In this document: one piece after another, positions 2,559 to 63,646 of the stretch
Numbering within the stretch: position 1 is the first letter of the stretch
How the letters are laid out: every line of letters begins with the position of its first letter
Program-made: the position numbers and the translations under genes
The notes under the pieces: model-generated
What the model was told of the DNA's origin: nothing
What the model saw: only the letters and a program-made list of their open reading frames with translations
The model's database searches: none
Source: Cetorhinus maximus
Lineage: Eukaryota
Direction of reading: 5' to 3'
Assembly (NCBI RefSeq): GCF_964194155.1
Contig: NC_135907.1
Location: 7,192,001-7,256,000, forward strand
Length of the DNA: 64,000 nucleotides

Positions 2559-4198
2559 CAGACTTGTCCAACCTTTTCTCACTGGGGACCACATTTCAAT
2601 GTTTCTCACACTGGGGGGGGGATGAGCAAATTTCAGAAAGATGAGGTTTGGCGCAACATTAAACATGAATTTTTAAAAATAAACTGACATATGATTAGAA
2701 ACAACTTGCTGAGCAAAAAACAAACAATCACAACAATAAATTGATAATTAAAAAATGAGTAATAAATAAAGGCGACCATTCGAATCTGAAAGGGTGAGTG
2801 TGTGTGTCCAGCTAACTCCGAGTCTCAGGGTGCTCATTCACTCACCATTACCCACTTTGAGAGTGCCTATTGGTGTGAGAAGATAAGGATGAATGAGAAC
2901 CCCGTGACTGGGAGTGAGTCAGACATACACTCTCCCCTCCTTATCACCCCCCTCACTCTCACATACACACACACAGGTGCATGCGCTCACACTCTGTCAC
3001 ATATACACCTGCGCTTATCTTCACACGGTGCACTCCCTCTCCCTCACACACGCTCCCACCCACACTCTCGCACACTCCCTCCCTCATCCGTACACTCCCG
3101 CCCTCACCTGCACTCCCGCGCACTCCCGCCCCCACCCCCCCTCTCGCGCCCCCTCCCGCCCTCACCCGCACACTCCCGCCCCCTCCCGCACACTCCCGCC
3201 CCCTCCCGCACACTCCCGCCCCCACCCGCACACTCCCGCCCCCACCCGCACACTCCCGCCCCCACCCGCACACTCCCGCCCCCACCCGCACACTCCCGCC
3301 CCCACCCGCACACTCCCGCCCCCACCCGCACACTCCCGCCCTCACCCGCACACTCCCGCCCTCACCCGCACACTCCCGCCCTCACCCGCACACTCCCGCC
3401 CTCTCCCGCCCTCACCCGCACACTCCCGCCCTCACCCGCACACTCCCGCCCTCACCCGCACACTCCCGCCCTCACCCGCACACTCCCGCCCTCACCCGCA
3501 CACTCCCGCCCTCACCCGCACACTCCCGCCCTCACCCGCACACTCCCGCCCTCACCCGCACACTCCCGCCCTCACCCGCACACTCCCGCCCTCACCCGCA
3601 CACTCCCGCCCTCACCCGCACACTCCCGCCCTCACCCGCACACTCCCGCCCTCACCCGCACACTCCCGCCCTCACCCGCACACTCCCGCCCTCACCCGCA
3701 CACTCCCGCCCTCACCCGCACACTCCCGCCCTCACCCGCACACTCGCACACTCCCGCCCTCACCCGCACTCTCGCACACTCCCGCCCCCACCCGCACTCT
3801 CGCACACTCCCGCCCCCACCCGCACTCTCGCACACTCCCGCCCTCACCTGCACTCTCCCTCCCTCACAGCAGCCCGGGGGTGGGATGGGGGGAGCAGACG
3901 CAGCTGGGCCAGGGCACCAGCAGCCACAGGAAAGCATGGTGAACGTGTGCTTCAAAGTGTCTCTATCTTCAAATACTCGCAGTTGCTGATGTTCGCTGCT
4001 CCTCCAATCACATCCTGTTTCATGTTTGATGCTGACAGGCTCACTACTGAGCAGCAAAGCTGGGAGAAAAACAGGCTGTGATTGGAGAGCAGACCCTTGA
4101 AGAAATCTTCAAACACACTGAGCCATCTTACCATTTTTCAACAATCGTTCCAGGGGCCACATGGAGGGGCTTCATGGGCTGCGGGTAGAACAAGCCTG
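2559..4198. mobile_element. Non-autonomous hAT (Charlie-like) DNA transposon
   Basis: Imperfect TIRs CAGACTTGTCCAACC / GGTAGAACAAGCCTG; perfect 8-bp TSD TTCTAGAC at 2551-2558 and 4199-4206 (Charlie-type NTCTAGAN target). Confidence 0.85.
3090..3855. repeat. 20-bp C-rich minisatellite (CACTCCCGCCCTCACCCGCA)n inside the hAT element
   Basis: Over 30 tandem units, homogeneous core 3330-3740, variant units at both ends. Confidence 0.97.
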
Positions 4199-12147: not shown

Positions 12148-12223
12148 CGCTCCGGTGTTCTGTTGTCGAGTATCCAGCGCTCCTGCCAGTCCTTCAATTG
12201 CCTGAGGTTCTTCATATTTTACA
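12148..12223 (-). CDS. TOM1: TOM1 coding exon 12, (N)[25 protein letters not shown]
   Basis: 76 bp, phase 2-0, ttcttccAG / GTGAGT; closely matches TOM1 [25 protein letters not shown], not TOM1L2. Confidence 0.93.
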
Positions 12224-19240: not shown

Positions 19241-19545
19241 CTTGTGTACATTGGGAGTTAACAAAAATCTATCCACGCAGAATTTGCTACTGACTTCCTC
19301 AAGATGCTAAAATGTTTAAACTTTAATTACTCATTCTGCCCAACTGCAGGCAATAGGATCATTGCATTAGAAAAGTTACAGTTTGGAATTAAATTCTGCA
19401 TCAATTGTTGTAAACTCACCTAAATAAGTAGTGCAGTAGAACAATTCCAGGATCTCGATCAAAACCATTGCTGCCATTTTATAAGCTTCAGCCAAGTTTC
19501 AAAACTAAAAGTTCTTAAATGAAGTGCTCAACCAAATCCATTTCA

Positions 19546-19762
19546 TCATATCCCAGTCCAATTAAGAGAGACTGGGTTGGGTCTTTGGCGGTCAAACTTT
19601 TCGAAAAAGTGGGGATCGGTGAACGGGCCACTGTGAATAATAGCATCAATGATGAAGAAAAGTGCAATAAGTAACAAACTGATGAGGAAAAATGGTACAA
19701 AGGGCTTCAGGTGTTTCAAATACATCTCCGTCAAAAGCTGAGGACTAAGAACTACTTTGCAA
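19546..19762 (-). CDS. Candidate alternative terminal exon or nested small ORF encoding a transmembrane helix (..LLTEMYLKHLKPFVPFFLISLLLIALFFIIDAIIHSGPFTDPHFFEKFDRQRPNPVSLNWTGI*)
   Basis: Unique sequence; AG acceptors at 19763-19764 and 19745-19746 both give an in-frame phase-2 join to exon 11; internal ATG at 19723-19725; double TGA stop; ATTAAA at 19322-19327. Confidence 0.45.
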
Positions 19763-20776
19763 CTGGAGAAGTATTTTCACACGACAGGCTCAAATCAAAA
19801 ATAGAACGCCTGAAAATAGAACACAGTGTACGTACACAAGGATTAAATTCAGAGATCTTGCTTTTTTTTTTAAATGACACCTCCAAATAATTGCATGGGT
19901 ACATATGATGCTTCACATGCTTTTGCTGTTTAGCAAGGGATCAAATTTTTATTGAGTACTCCAGATCATAGCACAGCGTTCCCTTTCAAGAGATCAATTT
20001 CCTTCAAATTAATTTGGCTTTACTACATACTCCCTCCATTTAAAGTCCACCCAGCATCATTCCCTATTAAAGAGGCCAGGCATGAAATGTGCTCTCAAGT
20101 CACACTCAAGTATTCGATATGAGTAGAAATTGAGAGAAGCATAGAAAGAGGAAAAGGCTCCCATGGGCTGGGGACTTTGCCAAAAAGTTGGGGAGACCCC
20201 AGGAGTGCAGTCCATCTCACCAGCCTTGTACTGATAGTGAAACCCCACCCAAGCTCTACCCCATACCTTCCCTACTCCTAGTATCTTTTTTGTAGCCATC
20301 TGCCATAATCCTAACTCAACAGCTTTTTGGGAGAGAGGGAGTGTTCCATATTTCCATTAGTGCTTCCTGACATCAACCCCAGTGGCCTAGTTCTAATTCT
20401 TAATGTTCTCCCCTCATGTGGGCTCTACCCATCAGAGGAAATAGTTTCTCTCTATCAATTCCTTTATCATCTTAAACACCCCAATTAGTTCCCTTAATCT
20501 TCCTCTACTCAAGAGAGTGGAAGCTTAGGCTATGCAACCTGTCCTCATAATTCAACCTTCTTGCCCTGGTAAATCTGTGCTGATCGAGGTGCTCAACATG
20601 TTAAACAGGATTTGATAGGGTAGATACTGAGAAACTTTTCCCTTGAGGAAATCAGGAACAAGGCGACACCATCTTAAAATTAGAGCTAGGCTATTTAGGA
20701 GGGAAATTAAGAGGCAATTTTTTCACACAAAGGGTAGCAGGATCTGGAACACTTTGCCTCAAAAGGCTGTAGATGC

Positions 20777-34129: not shown

Positions 34130-34259
34130 TTCTTGCGCTGATCAGCCAAGGAGTTGCTTCTGGTCTGGGCAAACATGTCAAACTCTTCCTCCTCAGTTTT
34201 TGGATGGTCGTTGTTCTCCAAGGACTTCAGTGTTCGACTCACACTTTCTTCTGCAACAC
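34130..34259 (-). CDS. TOM1: TOM1 coding exon 11, (S)VAEESVSRTLKSLENNDHPKTEEEEFDMFAQTRSNSLADQRK
   Basis: 130 bp, phase 1-2, tttAG / GTGAGT; EFDMFAxTR..SLADQRK motif. Confidence 0.93.
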
Positions 34260-41600: not shown

Positions 41601-41815
41601 CACTAAAACAGATTAACTAGTCATCACATTCCTATTTAAAGGACACTGTTGAGCAATAATTGGTTGCCACATTTCCTACATAACAGTCACTTCAAAAACT
41701 GTAATTGGCTATGAAGTGCTTTGGGACATCAAGGTTGTGAAAGGCATTACATAAATGCAAATTCTTTTTAAAGAAAAGGATCTTTCAGTGTAGCTGTAAA
41801 GGTGCACTTGATTAC

Positions 41816-41949
41816 CTGTCATATCGGAGGAATATATTATTGAGGTTGTCATTGACATGCAATAGGTCCTCTGTCACCTGCTCATTGGTGACTCTTGAGA
41901 TAAGCTCCAGGATCCTCTGCTGCATTGCTCGACATGTTCTGTTCAACTC
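41816..41949 (-). CDS. TOM1: TOM1 coding exon 8 (GAT), [44 protein letters not shown](R)
   Basis: 134 bp, phase 0-2, acAG / GTAAT; translated by hand, not in ORF track. Confidence 0.95.
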
Positions 41950-43050
41950 CTGTTGTGGAAAATGTGTAATTACATGCAACTGCTAAAGATATGGCAGGCA
42001 AAGGTGAATTATCTTAAAGCAGGTGTTTAAATATTAAACCAACTTTCTTTTTTTTTTGAAAGTTCTGTTCCTCCCAAAAGTCTGGGCTCCTTGTATTAAG
42101 AGTACCAGTCACCTTTGCTGAAGTGGCTATTCTTCCTGCATGAGCCTACACAATATCAGCAGGCTCATTGGTGTTCTTGAGCCCGATCTTGTCCTTGCTT
42201 AATGCCACACATCAGCACTTATAGCTGCAGTCACTGGAGAGCATAATAAGATCAGTCTTCTCCTTAATCTCAGGGTACTCAGGCTAACTGTCACCCCTTA
42301 CTACTGACATCAATCAAGTTGACATGGGACAGGAATCCAAGAACTCAGTATTCTCTATTGTTCAGCTACAGTGTCGATAAACTTGCTGTGTCATTAGGGG
42401 ATGCCCCAGGTATTTCCATTTGAAGAGTGCATGATTGTCACAAGGGCAGGTTTTTCACATTTACTGTAAACTGTTCCAAATTCTGTTCACCACAAAATCA
42501 GAACTTTGGGGTTTAGGCGTACTAGCATATTGGTTTAAGAACATGATGTTTTAACTGATGCAAGGTGAAGACTAATCTGGTTGCTGAGACTTAGGTGTGG
42601 ATTACTAATACCCAAAAGATGGTTTAGGGTTTAATGGCTTAAGGTATCGAAAATTAAAGATGCCAAAGGGTATGAGTGAACTGACTCAAGGGCCAGGACT
42701 CTAAGTCAGAAGATGGAAGTGAATAGTACAGATTTCACTCCTTGACACTGTGTGGAACAGACCATCAAAGGAGGCAGTGGCAACAGAGAAGAAAGGGGCT
42801 AGCTTTTGACAATAGAGCTAATTGATGGGAGTTAAAGTATAGTTGATTTTTTTTGAACTGCAGGATTGGCCAGATGGGCCATGATGTTTTCCTCCCCAAA
42901 TCCAGTTCAATTCCATATTCAAGAAATATGGAGCCAAGGCAGGTAAATTAAGTTGAGATACAGATCCAGCATAATATAACTGAATGGCAATATAGGCCCA
43001 ACTGGTTGAATGGCTTACTCCTCCCGTCCTATGTTAAAACATTGTTTCAC

Positions 43051-44285: not shown

Positions 44286-44414
44286 CTGTTCGAGGGAGGG
44301 AGTGATTGCACCTTCTGTGGACACTGCTGGGATAGGCTGCTCAGAGACCGGGAACATCGCTGGCTGTGCTGGGGCAGAGTTTTGTGTGACTGCTGGGTCA
44401 ACTTCGGGAATAGT
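44286..44414 (-). CDS. TOM1: TOM1 coding exon 6 (VHS-GAT linker), TIPEVDPAVTQNSAPAQPAMFPVSEQPIPAVSTEGAITPSLEQ
   Basis: 129 bp, phase 0-0, ttttcAG / GTAAA; PEVDPA and terminal EQ match family exon 6. Confidence 0.9.
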
Positions 44415-45039
44415 CTGAAAAATAAAACAAGAGTAAAATGAACATCTGTACGCAAAAGGATGAGTGCAGTGGGTAATGACAAGCTTCCAGAATTAACGTC
44501 CAGGATTAACAACAGGACAAAATGAATAGACATCCATTTTGGATAAACGTCTGATGTTAAAACTCCCAAATTATGCAGGTTACTTGTAGGAAAGTAAGTC
44601 CTTCTCAGTTTACACAGCAGGATAACAAAAGTTTTAAGAGGTTCTTTAATGACTCAGCAAGTTCATCCAGTTAATTAGCTGAGCCATTATAAACCAGAAA
44701 GGTGCTTAGTTTGGAACCCTGCTCGGTGCTGAGCCAGCTGACCTGAACCAGGTGGTGTTTGGAGCCTTAACAGCCTCAGCATCTGAAGTTGCTGGAGATG
44801 GTTCCACAGGGTCTGGATTCCCTAATGTATTCCACCAAAGTAACAGGGTAACATGTATCACAGCTGACTCAAATATTGTCAACGCCTGGCATCCATGTGA
44901 AATCTTCCTGTCATGGTCACTGGACAGCAATCAGGAGCAAGAATCCTGGAAAATCCTCTCCTCTCTGTAGCTCAAAGGCAGAGGTCAATTGCTGCTCCAT
45001 ACTGAATTAACTCAGCAGAAACCAGGTTTCAAAACTGTG

Positions 45040-48019: not shown

Positions 48020-48154
48020 TCTCTGAGGTGTGTGAATGGGAGACAGTGCATCAAGGTCTGTCATAGGGAACTCAAGCCCCTTCCTCCTCAGTTCTTCATA
48101 CACAGTCACTACCCCAGTGAGGTCTGGAGTACTCCGGAAAGCATCAGCCCAAGC
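48020..48154 (-). CDS. TOM1: TOM1 coding exon 5 (end of VHS), [45 protein letters not shown]
   Basis: 135 bp, phase 0-0, cAG / GTAAGT. Confidence 0.95.
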
Positions 48155-51464: not shown

Positions 51465-51614
51465 CTGAATTAAGCTCAGTACTTTATCCTGCACTACAGT
51501 GGGTGGATTGTTCTTAGGCAGAATGGTTTTTACTAATACATCCTCCACAAAGTCCCGACTGGCCACCATAACATGGAATCGATGGCCACAGTTCTTCACA
51601 CAAGTCTCTAGAAC
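51465..51614 (-). CDS. TOM1: TOM1 coding exon 4 (VHS), [50 protein letters not shown]
   Basis: 150 bp, phase 0-0, AG / GTAAGT; hallmark VHS motif [13 protein letters not shown]. Confidence 0.95.
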
Positions 51615-54008
51615 CTTTATTAGATAAAACATTAGACAAATTCAAACTGAGAATATATTGATCCATTAAGCATGAATTTTAATAGCATCCTCTATTCTAA
51701 TTTTAACTTGACTATTGTGGTTTACAATTGTGACTGGGCTGCAAACATGCACAAAGGGAAAAGTGATAGCGCAAATAGAAATATAGAAGTATGATCTGAT
51801 AGACATTACAGAGACATGGCTACAGGATGACATAGATTGGGACCTGAATATTGAATTCATATGTGACTTTTAGGAAGGACAGGAAGTTAGGAAAAGGTGG
51901 AGGGGTGGCTCTGTTATTTAACGATGGTATTAGCATATTAGAGAAAGTTGACCTAAGTTCAGGAAGCCAGGATGTAGAGACGGTTTAGGTTGAAATGAGA
52001 AATGATAAAAGCAAGGAGTCGCTTGTGGGAGTGTTGTACAGGCCCCTTAATTGTAACTACACAGCAGGACAAGTATAAAAGAAGAGATAATGGGAGCTTG
52101 CCAGAAAGGTACAGCAATAATCATGGGAGATTATTTAATCTACATATAGATTAGAAAAATCAGATGGGCGAAGGTAGCATAGATGAGGAGTTCATTGAAT
52201 GTTTTCGGGATAGTTTCTTAGACCAGCACGTTCTGGAGCCAACCAGAGAGCAGGCTATACTAGACACGGTGTTGAGCAACGAGATAGGGTTAATTGATAA
52301 CCTCCTAGTGAAGGCACCCCTAGGCAGCAGCAATCATAATATGATTGAATTTTTCATTCATTTTGAGGGAGAAACGAATGCGTCCAAGATGAGTATTTCA
52401 AACTTAAATAAGGGCAATTATGAGGGCATGAAAGCAGAGCTAGCTAAAGCGAACTGGCAGATGAGGTTAAGGGATATGTCTAAAAAAGTTTAGTAGCAGA
52501 CATTCAAAGAAATATTTCAGAATACACAGAATATATACATTCCAATGAGAAAGAAAAATTCTAAGGGGAGGGCCACCATCTGTGGTTAACTAAAACAGTT
52601 ATAGGCAGTATCAAACTTAAAGAAAAAGCAGATAATTACGTAAAGACGGGTGGCAGGTCAGAAGATTGGAAAGAATATGAAGAACAGCAAACAATGACAA
52701 AAAGATTAATAAGGAGGGAAAAATTAGAGTATGAGAGAAAGCTAGCTAGTAACGTAAAGATGGATAGTAAGAGTTTCTATAGATATTTAAACAAGAAAAG
52801 AGTTAACTATGTGAGTGTTGGTCCTATAGAAAGTGCATCTGGGGAATTGATAATAGAAAGTAGGGAGATAGCGGATGAATTAAACAGGTATTTTGCTTCG
52901 GTCTTCACTATAGAGGACACAAGTAACATCCCGGAAATAGCTGTAAATCAGGAAATGGAAGGGAGGAACTCGGGAAAATTAAAATCACCAGGGAAGTGGT
53001 ATTGAGCAAATTGTTGAGGCTGCGGGCTGACAAATCCCCAGGTCCAGATGGACTTCACCCTAAGGTCTTGAAAGAAAAGGCTAGTGAGATAGTTGCTGCA
53101 TTGTTTTTAATTATCCAAAATTCCCTAGATTCAGGGAAGGTTCCATTAGATTGAAAAATAGCAAATATAACTCCTTTATTCAAAAAGGGAGGGAGGCAGA
53201 AAGCAGGAAACTATAGGCCAGTTAGCCTAACATCTGTCATAGGGAAAATGTTAGAAGTTATTATTAAAGATTTTATAGCAGGGCACTTAGAAAAAATCAA
53301 GGCCATCAGGCAGAGTCAACATAGTTTTGTAAAAGGGAAATCATGTTTAACCAACTTACTGGAATTCTTTGAAGGAGTCACATGTGCTGTGGATAAAGGA
53401 GAATCAGTGGATGTACTGTCAATTTCCAGAAGGCATTTGATGAAGTGCCACATCAAAGATTATTGCAGAAAATAAAAGCTCATGGTGTAGGGGCTAATAT
53501 ATTGACATGGTTAGAAGATTGGCTAGCTAACAGGAAACAAAGAGTTGACATAAATGGGTCTTATTCTGGTTGGCAAGATGTGACAAGTGGTGCACCACAG
53601 AGATCAGTGCTGGGGCCTCAACTTTTTACAATTTATATCGATGTCTTGGATGAAAGAATGGTGGCTAAATTTGCTGACAACACAAAGATAGGTAGGAAAG
53701 TAAACTGTGAAGAGGATGTTAGGAGGCTGCAAAGTGACATGGATAGGTTAAGTGAGTGGGCAAAGATCTGGCAAATGGAGTACAATGTGGGAAAATGTGA
53801 AATCGTTCATTTTGGCAGGAAGAATAAAAAAGACTATCTAAATGGCGAGAGATGGCAGAACTCTTGAAATTCAGAGGAATCTGGGTATCCTAGTACATGA
53901 GTCACAAAAGGTTAGTATGCAGGTACAGCAGGTAATTAGGAAAGCTAATAGAATGTTATCATTTATTGTGAGGGGAATTAATTACAACGGTAGGGAGGTT
54001 ATGCTTCA

Positions 54009-62240: not shown

Positions 62241-63646
62241 GTACAAGGGCTAGCGAAAGTTGCGGATCCAGGGTGACAACTTAAAACATATAGATGGTGA
62301 TTTTCAATTCAGTGTTTTCAGGCACATGAAGTCAGTGAAGCGAGGGGCAGGGGAAGATAGAGAGAAGAGCAAGCAACAAAACTATAATTAGAGTAAGCTG
62401 TAGGTCAATATTGTGATGGGATAGGGAACAGAACTTCACACATGAAATATATTGGATAAGTAGAGTACAAATGCCAAGGACATGAGGAATGTGACAGATA
62501 TGTTCAACACATTTCGCAAACAATAAAACTTCAGGGTGTTTCCAACCTACATGCCTCAATTTTCCAAAAATACTCACACCCAATTCTGTCACCATAAATC
62601 TGAGTTAAACATACACATCACTTCATTTGCCAATCCCATTACAAACCACTATCATAATACGTTACTAAAATATAAACAGCAAGCAATGAGCATTTAAAAT
62701 TACATATTCACTACAGCTTAAAAATTGAATGCCAGGAGTTATTACATTTTTCTTAAATAAATTCAATGGTTCATTATTGAAAGGGTTAAGGGATCAAAAT
62801 AAGAAAGGCTAGAGCACATCTCAAGCTGCTGGTTACTGAAATGTAAAGGGCTAACTGGCCTTGTCAAAGTTACTTCACACAAGTCCTTTTTAAAAAGATG
62901 ACAGCAAAGTGCAGGTAATACATGCCAACCGGTCAGCATTTTCACCTTGTTTCCACTTGTTAGTCTTTTTCAAGTTACTATGCTAAGCTGAATTCATCCT
63001 ATAAAGCGCCCCAACAAAGTTGGTTCTGCACATGTGCACTTGATTCAATAGCTTCCATATTGCAAGTGCAGCAGGACTCAGATACACACCAGTCAAAGTT
63101 ACACACAAACACTTTGTGATGAGGTCATTTGCTATCTCTGTCAAGCTCTGTGCTGCTCTTCCTTTCGCTGGCTGAATGCATTGGTTCTGATCAATGGGTT
63201 GTAGCCATAAGGTCAGTGTTGGGTCCTATCCCTGCTTTCAATGGATCATGGAGTCAAGGTTCAGAGGAGAACTAGGTGCCAGCATTTTATAGGGCTACAT
63301 GAATTTCAGGGAGAAATTTTTTCTAATCTCAGCAGTGCTTTAGTTCTGTTTCAGTGAAAAAGATGTTTACTCAAACAAGCAGTGCGTTTGTCATTCCACT
63401 GTCTCTCCTGAGGTGACACTGCCTGGATTCTAGTCTCAATGCAGGGTATGGGAGAGATTGAACTTGTAATGATCATTTGTTTCTACTCAATTATATGTGA
63501 ATTCAGGGACCAGCAAGTTATTGAATTCATTCCTGGAGAAATGTTCTCATATGAAAATAACAAACAGGTCATGGAGCAAACTGCATCATAGTTTTGGAAA
63601 ATACTTAAAACCTGTTACCGGTTTTTTTTTTTGCGGTTGCACCCTC

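Follow-up and report, generated by a model that had tools for sequence, protein, structure and literature searches.

A conserved reading frame in a TOM1 intron of Cetorhinus maximus is probably a nested gene for a small membrane glycoprotein

The window analyzed here, 64,000 nt of Cetorhinus maximus contig NC_135907.1 (positions 7,192,001 to 7,256,000), carries on its minus strand a gene that we mapped as TOM1-type by Pfam, PDB and tblastn matches. Its VHS domain (PF00790) lies at 51465–51620 and its GAT domain (PF03127) at 41812–41952, while the exon at 48020–48154 matches Target of Myb1 (1ELK, E 1e-13). The last exon, which falls just outside the window (locus L007), matches the C-terminus of two proteins discussed below, P0135 and P0154. 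The C-terminal myosin VI-binding region is also present, with residues 103–128 of P0135 matching 6J56, and this solved TOM1 myosin VI-binding peptide maps to the last exons; passages of a 2026 TOM1 review place the motif at residues 392–463 (PMC13386808). An earlier sequence-only reading of this DNA had assigned myosin VI binding to an IxxWL motif. The solved peptide lies in the last exons and not in the IxxWL exon, but both are downstream of the intron considered here. Exon numbers follow that reading. The intron, 21,906 nt between exon 11 (34259–34130) and exon 12 (12223–12148), holds an open reading frame (ORF) on the TOM1 strand, and exon 11 ends in phase 2, as had been read.

34130–34259, minus strand: exon 11 of TOM1, preceding the intron, with a phase-2 donor
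19549–19725, minus strand: ORF of 59 codons with its own ATG; its product is predicted to be a type II microprotein that crosses the membrane once
19636–19701, minus strand: hydrophobic segment, codons 9–30, predicted transmembrane (TM) helix (KD19 2.97; helix in AlphaFold)
19573–19629, minus strand: conserved motif past the helix, codons 33–51, predicted luminal (81-sequence alignment)
19555–19563, minus strand: N-W-T sequon near the C-terminus, read from sequence, with tail sequons in relatives
19543–19548, minus strand: tandem TGA TGA stop, read from sequence
12148–12223, minus strand: TOM1 exon downstream of the intron (exon 12)

The minus-strand frame is free of stops from 19776 to 19549, and the ATG at 19725–19723 has a G at −3. 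The 59 codons, start context, double stop, hydrophobic helix and sequon described in the sequence-only reading are all found in the sequence, and every coordinate it gave checks out. Basic residues lie on the N side of the predicted helix. The best 19-residue hydropathy of the peptide (KD19, 2.97) is the highest among all 144 ATG-initiated ORFs of at least 50 aa in the window, just one further of which reaches at least 2.3. AlphaFold models a long helix at residues 4–32, with pLDDT of 93–96 across residues 11–30, and a short helix at 42–46 (mean pLDDT 77); a homodimer prediction scored 0.03, which tells neither for nor against. A second hydrophobic ORF of 87 codons with an ATG runs from window position 62595 downward on the minus strand (KD19 2.56).

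The ORF sits in a single-copy island of ~1.05 kb, from ~19246 to 20310, in agreement with the non-repetitive island described earlier. Repeat matches lie below 19245 and above ~20310, and one short match (20196–20301) falls inside. The peptide has one strong match in the 4-Gb genome, namely itself; a second match (L002, E 0.7) was dismissed as chance.

Searching 1.84 billion representative proteins with phmmer yielded 16 matches, 15 of which are to the peptide with 44–65% identity (best E 7e-19); the sixteenth, P0016, is a fasciclin repeat protein and was rejected as a chance match. A profile search recovered 103 relatives, 41–66% identical, among 6578 candidates. The 23 rows that carry a species name are all teleosts, and cluster look-ups added sturgeon, eel, arapaima, the frog Staurois and the skink Lerista. 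A further group of proteins of 58–89 aa resembles the skink sequence and is probably sauropsid. Proteins of the short group are 61–66% identical to the ORF, and stand-alone teleost models of 100–165 aa are 41–59% identical over the core. Across 81 aligned sequences, P11, F12 and I29 are invariant, as are G33, P34, D37, F40 and P49 of the motif past the helix. Judged by these comparisons, the ORF is an old coding sequence, with relatives beyond the shark in teleosts, sturgeon, frog and skink. Among the species-named relatives there is no mammal, most relative records carrying no species name; since no named relative is a mammal, mammals may have lost the gene.

Other collections were silent. 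Pfam matched none of the 81 members apart from three chance hits (E 0.03–0.08), the PDB sequence search and Foldseek returned no match to the peptide, and the viral and prokaryote collections contained no relative of it. The ESM Atlas gave one weak bacterial hit at 0.77 and no usable hit with P0045. A search of longer proteins with the single peptide, insensitive since it missed the sturgeon protein P0009, scored none of its 24 candidates. The teleost models AWP12043.1, KAK5864782.1 and XDV36667.1, each a "hypothetical protein," belong to the same family as the ORF, from which they differ by an N-terminal extension of ~45 residues and, mostly, a longer tail. Teleost family models go without names or are misnamed as TOM1-like, ZNF469 or smoothelin-like. 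The ORF has therefore already been predicted as a hypothetical protein in many teleost assemblies but not recognized as a family. Open-access literature on TOM1 isoforms, nested genes and fish micropeptides yielded no paper on the ORF, and seven passages of the TOM1 review that mention "isoform" or "transmembrane" describe neither a membrane isoform nor a nested gene (PMC13386808). Overall, the relatives appear to form a vertebrate family of membrane proteins that has not been described before, present in cartilaginous fishes, bony fishes, frogs and lizards.

Three sequences place the peptide within TOM1 in other lineages. In the sturgeon model P0009 the end of exon 11 is followed directly by the peptide, the skink model P0154 has the peptide between exons 11 and 12, and P0135, a Logan sequence nearly identical to frog sequences, continues from the peptide into exons 12–15 and lacks exon 11. 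Because it joins several exons, P0135 looks transcript-derived, whereas P0009 and P0154 are gene predictions that show position, not splicing. On these alignments the peptide lies between the same two TOM1 exons in sturgeon, skink and the frog-like sequence, so that its position is shared with the shark. No tom1 exon was found in either of two teleost loci (L003 and L004). A stand-alone turbot model of the ORF is nonetheless named "putative target of Myb protein 1-like," and across assemblies the family ORF is fused into TOM1 models in two and into BTB-protein models in another two. In the latter, from eel (P0012, KAJ8382417.1) and arapaima (P0013, KAL4641697.1), the TM peptide forms the N-terminus of a BTB-domain protein; these are probably neighbors merged by gene prediction. 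They suggest an ORF just upstream of a BTB gene, possibly without tom1 exons 12–15 in between. The BTB protein itself has only weak relatives in the genome of the window, on C18, C16 and C1130, and no match in 50 kb of neighboring DNA.

Selection was gauged between the two teleost loci, which come from metagenome contigs. For L003 and L004, dN/dS is 0.22 both for the whole ORF and for the N-terminal 49 codons and 0.07 for the core, indicating purifying selection, and codons 1–7 differ by three silent codon changes and one amino-acid change. Silent sites are saturated between the shark ORF and teleosts. Closer comparison was possible with organism B, one close relative represented by a single contig at depth 6. 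Relative to the window it carries 26 substitutions (a second tally gives 27; the analysis uses the 26) and four indels, every one of the indels outside the ORF, and it keeps the frame, ATG, stops and sequon, together with the three acceptors, the donor at 19419 and the ATTAAA described below. Its ORF differs at 5 of 180 sites (2.8%), four of them amino-acid changes (Y2F, I20V, V52I and S53P). With four amino-acid changes over 140 sites against one silent change over 37 (P = 1.0), there is no signal of purifying selection in this pair. In the proximal non-coding DNA, 7 of 621 sites are changed (1.1%), compared with 14 of 280 further upstream (P = 0.001, with boundaries picked after seeing the data), and the nearby non-coding DNA is thus better conserved than the ORF. 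Constraint is evident between teleosts, then, but not between the window and organism B, where only five changes are available.

The relatives also bear on topology. Net charge is higher on the N side of the helix than on the C side in 83 of 96 relatives. The tail carries a sequon in 70 of 88 teleost-like proteins, where shuffling gives an expectation of 20.2, and in all eight short proteins (1.5 expected), whereas the N side has no sequon excess (14 versus 21.0 expected). Of the 70 teleost tail sequons, 69 are NxT and 49 lie four residues from the end, despite twofold differences in tail length; as these counts come from related sequences and not independent events, they overstate independence. 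P0005, P0014, P0044 and P0101 have no sequon, and frog sequences lack it. Passages of one study describe extreme C-terminal sequons of type II proteins as STT3B substrates, with NxT favored (PMC3613688). The family resembles those proteins in its predicted type II topology and in an NxT close to the C-terminus, but its sequon is just 4–6 residues from the end, and those passages are silent on use so close to the terminus (PMC3613688). From charge and sequon patterns we infer that the N-terminus is cytosolic, the tail is luminal and the protein passes through the secretory pathway.

Candidate signals for expression of the ORF lie within the intron. Acceptors were ranked with a rough matrix built from seven of the gene's own acceptors and applied to 1584 intron AGs.

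19868–19882, minus strand: T-box-like octamer, then an A/T-rich TATA-like run; weak candidate for an internal promoter, found post hoc
19810–19811, minus strand: acceptor (exon from 19809), strongest locally, rank 16 of 1584, out of frame for a fusion of TOM1 to the TM segment
19763–19764, minus strand: acceptor (exon from 19762), weak, rank 289 of 1584, in frame with exon 11
19745–19746, minus strand: acceptor (exon from 19744), weak, rank 141 of 1584, in frame with exon 11
19414–19419, minus strand: consensus donor AG/GTGAGT, the sole such site in the 21,906-nt intron
19322–19327, minus strand: ATTAAA, candidate poly(A) signal, unchanged in organism B

The sequence-only reading had joined exon 11 in frame to 19762 and 19744, called the acceptor at 19810–19811 the stronger one and expected it to give a short, stop-terminated tail. 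Each point holds: the in-frame junctions add 71 residues (at 19762) and 65 residues (at 19744), the ranking separates 16 from 141 and 289, and exon 11 joined at 19809 reads 18 residues before a stop. Other AGs lie inside the pyrimidine tract of the 19745–19746 acceptor. The ATTAAA that had been noted downstream is likewise present, at 19327. That reading overlooked the donor at 19419, which is 126 nt past the ORF stop and 92 nt ahead of the ATTAAA, so that the candidate terminal exon contains a consensus donor. Were the mRNA spliced at 19419, its stop would lie 126 nt upstream of an exon junction and would probably trigger nonsense-mediated decay (NMD), and a donor so close upstream of the ATTAAA could suppress the poly(A) site. 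Because the best acceptor and the sole AG/GTGAGT donor frame it, the 390-nt exon 19809–19420 is the best-defined exon of the intron. It is out of frame with TOM1, contains the whole ORF and, in the TOM1 frame, reads as a stop-containing cassette.

Upstream DNA gives tentative indications of a promoter. L003:1425–1470 and L004:1–45 share a near-identical block in which a TATA-like core is followed ~30 nt on by an initiator-like stretch, located ~300 nt upstream of the ORF in both loci. An octamer similar to that of the window precedes the TATA-like block in L003, the block itself being common to L004. Upstream in L003 there are, in addition, three CAGCTG E-boxes, three T-box-like octamers and MEF2-like motifs. 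Upstream DNA of the window does not align with that of the teleosts, nor do the short promoter motifs. Expression in muscle or heart is a weak guess from these motifs.

Whether the ORF is translated from its own ATG or as an extension of TOM1 can be approached by comparison. Of the 103 relatives, 88 were classed as teleost-like and 8 as short, and 7 without an anchor were left unclassified. A Met lies 40–54 residues before the helix in 86 of the 88 teleost-like proteins; gene callers start at Met, so that the fair test is provided by calls that run further upstream, and all 13 of these keep an internal Met 50–54 residues before the helix. Sequence ahead of this internal Met is not conserved. 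The residue right after the teleost Met is D, E, G or A in 82 of 86 proteins, which implies a G at +4. In both teleost loci the frame is interrupted by a stop two codons ahead of the ATG. Of the 37 short-group proteins, 14 reach beyond the site, and a Met 38 residues before the motif Gly is kept in 13 of these, although the 14 informative calls stem from few clusters; P0131 is without this tetrapod Met. Like the sequon counts, the Met counts come from related sequences and overstate independence. The distance from Met to the motif Gly is 32 residues here, 38–39 in tetrapods and ~76–80 in teleosts. By this measure the start Met is not homologous across lineages, which counts against an independent start.

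The headline of the sequence-only reading was a membrane-anchored TOM1, in which exon 11 is spliced to 19762 or 19744 and the mRNA ends at the ATTAAA. VHS-GAT would then be anchored in the membrane by a C-terminal TM segment, with a short glycosylated tail in the lumen, and the myosin VI site would be lost. A conserved TM-coding sequence is indeed present, and several observations suit such a fusion. Both in-frame acceptors are unchanged in organism B, N-in/C-out is the topology that the isoform requires, sturgeon P0009 has exactly this architecture, skink P0154 also enters from exon 11, and a phase-compatible AG occurs at codon 8 in both teleost loci; the turbot name noted above points the same way. 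Against this, the acceptors are weak and sit behind the stronger out-of-frame 19809, P0009 and P0154 enter the peptide at different, unconserved points, and the P0009 record bears the flag UNVERIFIED_CONTAM and gave no match to GAT. No acceptor common to different lineages was found among the DNA of the two teleosts and organism B and the models P0009 and P0154. Teleost codon 8 varies: of 35 relatives, 23 have Ser there, 11 have Gly and one has Thr. Coding constraint acts on the codons that precede it. A search with the sturgeon tail against proteins of 237–756 aa, with 11 candidates, found itself alone, a weak result as the search was blind to P0154, a non-representative cluster member. Nor does the fusion explain the conserved Mets. 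We therefore regard the anchored isoform as unlikely to be what this sequence chiefly encodes; were the exon 11 fusion true, TOM1 would have an integral-membrane form.

In contrast, the comparative data agree better with the second option of that reading, a microprotein initiated independently at its own ATG, given the conserved Mets and the upstream stops. The best-defined exon, which holds the whole ORF and stops in the TOM1 frame, also favors independent initiation. The sequence evidence as a whole favors it over the exon 11 fusion and remains compatible with a minor fusion isoform. In our preferred interpretation, the conserved ORF is thus likely a nested gene with its own ATG, encoding a small single-pass membrane glycoprotein, a predicted accessory subunit; that it specifies an independent protein nested in TOM1 is likewise the probable case. 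Transcription would begin at a promoter inside the intron, with a start site near 19840, or with a short upstream exon that uses the 19809 acceptor. In the resulting mRNA the first ATG would be that at 19725; none occurs between the 19809 acceptor and 19725 or between 19896 and 19725. The mRNA would either end at the ATTAAA or be spliced at 19419 onto TOM1 exons 12–15 as 3′ UTR. The peptide would be inserted N-in, C-out, with its luminal tail N-glycosylated, and the invariant motif past the helix together with the invariant helix start would form a partner-binding surface, as in regulins, FXYD and KCNE proteins.

Single-pass regulatory microproteins include phospholamban, sarcolipin, myoregulin, and the FXYD, KCNE and SMIM proteins. 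The peptide is like them in size, in having one helix with short flanks and in its strong conservation in and beside the helix, and regulins share the predicted N-in/C-out orientation; it departs from the regulins in its luminal tail, which is longer, conserved and bears a sequon. No profile, structure-sequence or fold match links it to the regulin, FXYD, KCNE or named SMIM families, and the likeness is put forward as an analogy of function only. Conservation is strongest at the helix start and in the luminal motif, which suggests that the peptide binds a fixed partner. Within the preferred interpretation, we tentatively suggest by analogy that the peptide assists or regulates a larger membrane protein as one of its subunits. 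The host, TOM1, is an ESCRT-0-like VHS-GAT adaptor; the ORF lies in its intron, on the same strand and with phase-compatible splice sites, but the peptide bears no likeness to TOM1 domains.

A broader view is that the exon is an ancient membrane-anchor module of non-mammalian jawed vertebrates used in up to three ways: as a lone microprotein, behind VHS-GAT as an integral-membrane, ubiquitin-sorting TOM1, and, in frog, before the myosin VI-binding tail. We consider this doubtful on present sequence comparisons. If true, a membrane-bound form of TOM1 would have been missed because mammals appear to be without the exon.

The best-defined exon admits another role, as a poison cassette: inserted between exons 11 and 12, 19809–19420 would stop TOM1 after 18 residues and lead to decay, the TM frame being a relic in this lineage or barely translated here. 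The strongest acceptor and the sole perfect donor of the intron do frame this exon, its flanks are better conserved against organism B than the ORF (1.1% against 2.8% divergence), and the ORF shows four amino-acid changes to one silent change. Yet five changes give little power, all four indels in organism B avoid the ORF, and the ORF is intact, 61–66% identical to the short group and saturated at silent sites against teleosts, so that protein constraint acted on it during most of its history. We judge the poison cassette improbable.

P0135 raises a different arrangement, in which the peptide serves as an N-terminal membrane anchor for the C-terminal tail of TOM1 (exons 12–15) and tethers myosin VI. 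This sequence reads in frame from the peptide into exons 12–15 and includes the 6J56 peptide, its break from the unspliced twin P0014 fits a phase-2 AG/GT splice to the first T of exon 12 (splice codons being inferred from residues), and frog sequences have lost the sequon. P0135 is, however, one sequence out of 103, and judging by the charge pattern its TOM1 tail would face the lumen, on the side opposite to myosin VI. In the window two stops precede the donor, so that the chimera cannot form here. We judge it very improbable as an account of the shark ORF. Finally, a chance hydrophobic frame or transposon debris, as might be suspected of an ORF that lies between repeats and belongs to no database family, is refuted, with negligible probability left to it, by relatives reaching E = 7e-19 in the 1.84-billion-protein library, purifying selection in teleosts and the same TOM1 position in other lineages, and by the single copy in the 4-Gb genome with no match to a mobile-element protein.

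In fish, frog and chicken, tom1 knockouts and expression data would be confounded by a nested unit with exons 12–15 in common with its host.

Several minor observations concern the rest of the locus. According to the splice-site listing, two TOM1 exons (window 41816–41982 and 44286–44445) have possible second, upstream acceptors. The intron between exons 12 and 13 contains a long low-complexity repeat at 2790–4108, rich in G+C and CpG, with several frames open on both strands. Downstream of TOM1, L009:1078–4157 holds broken frames that by eye resemble an LTR retroelement, and L010:5600–9576 holds duplicated pieces that by eye resemble a non-LTR element. Three tandem heme oxygenase copies lie ~0.9 Mb from TOM1 (C30:8168232–8177000); in mammals HMOX1 is a neighbor of TOM1.
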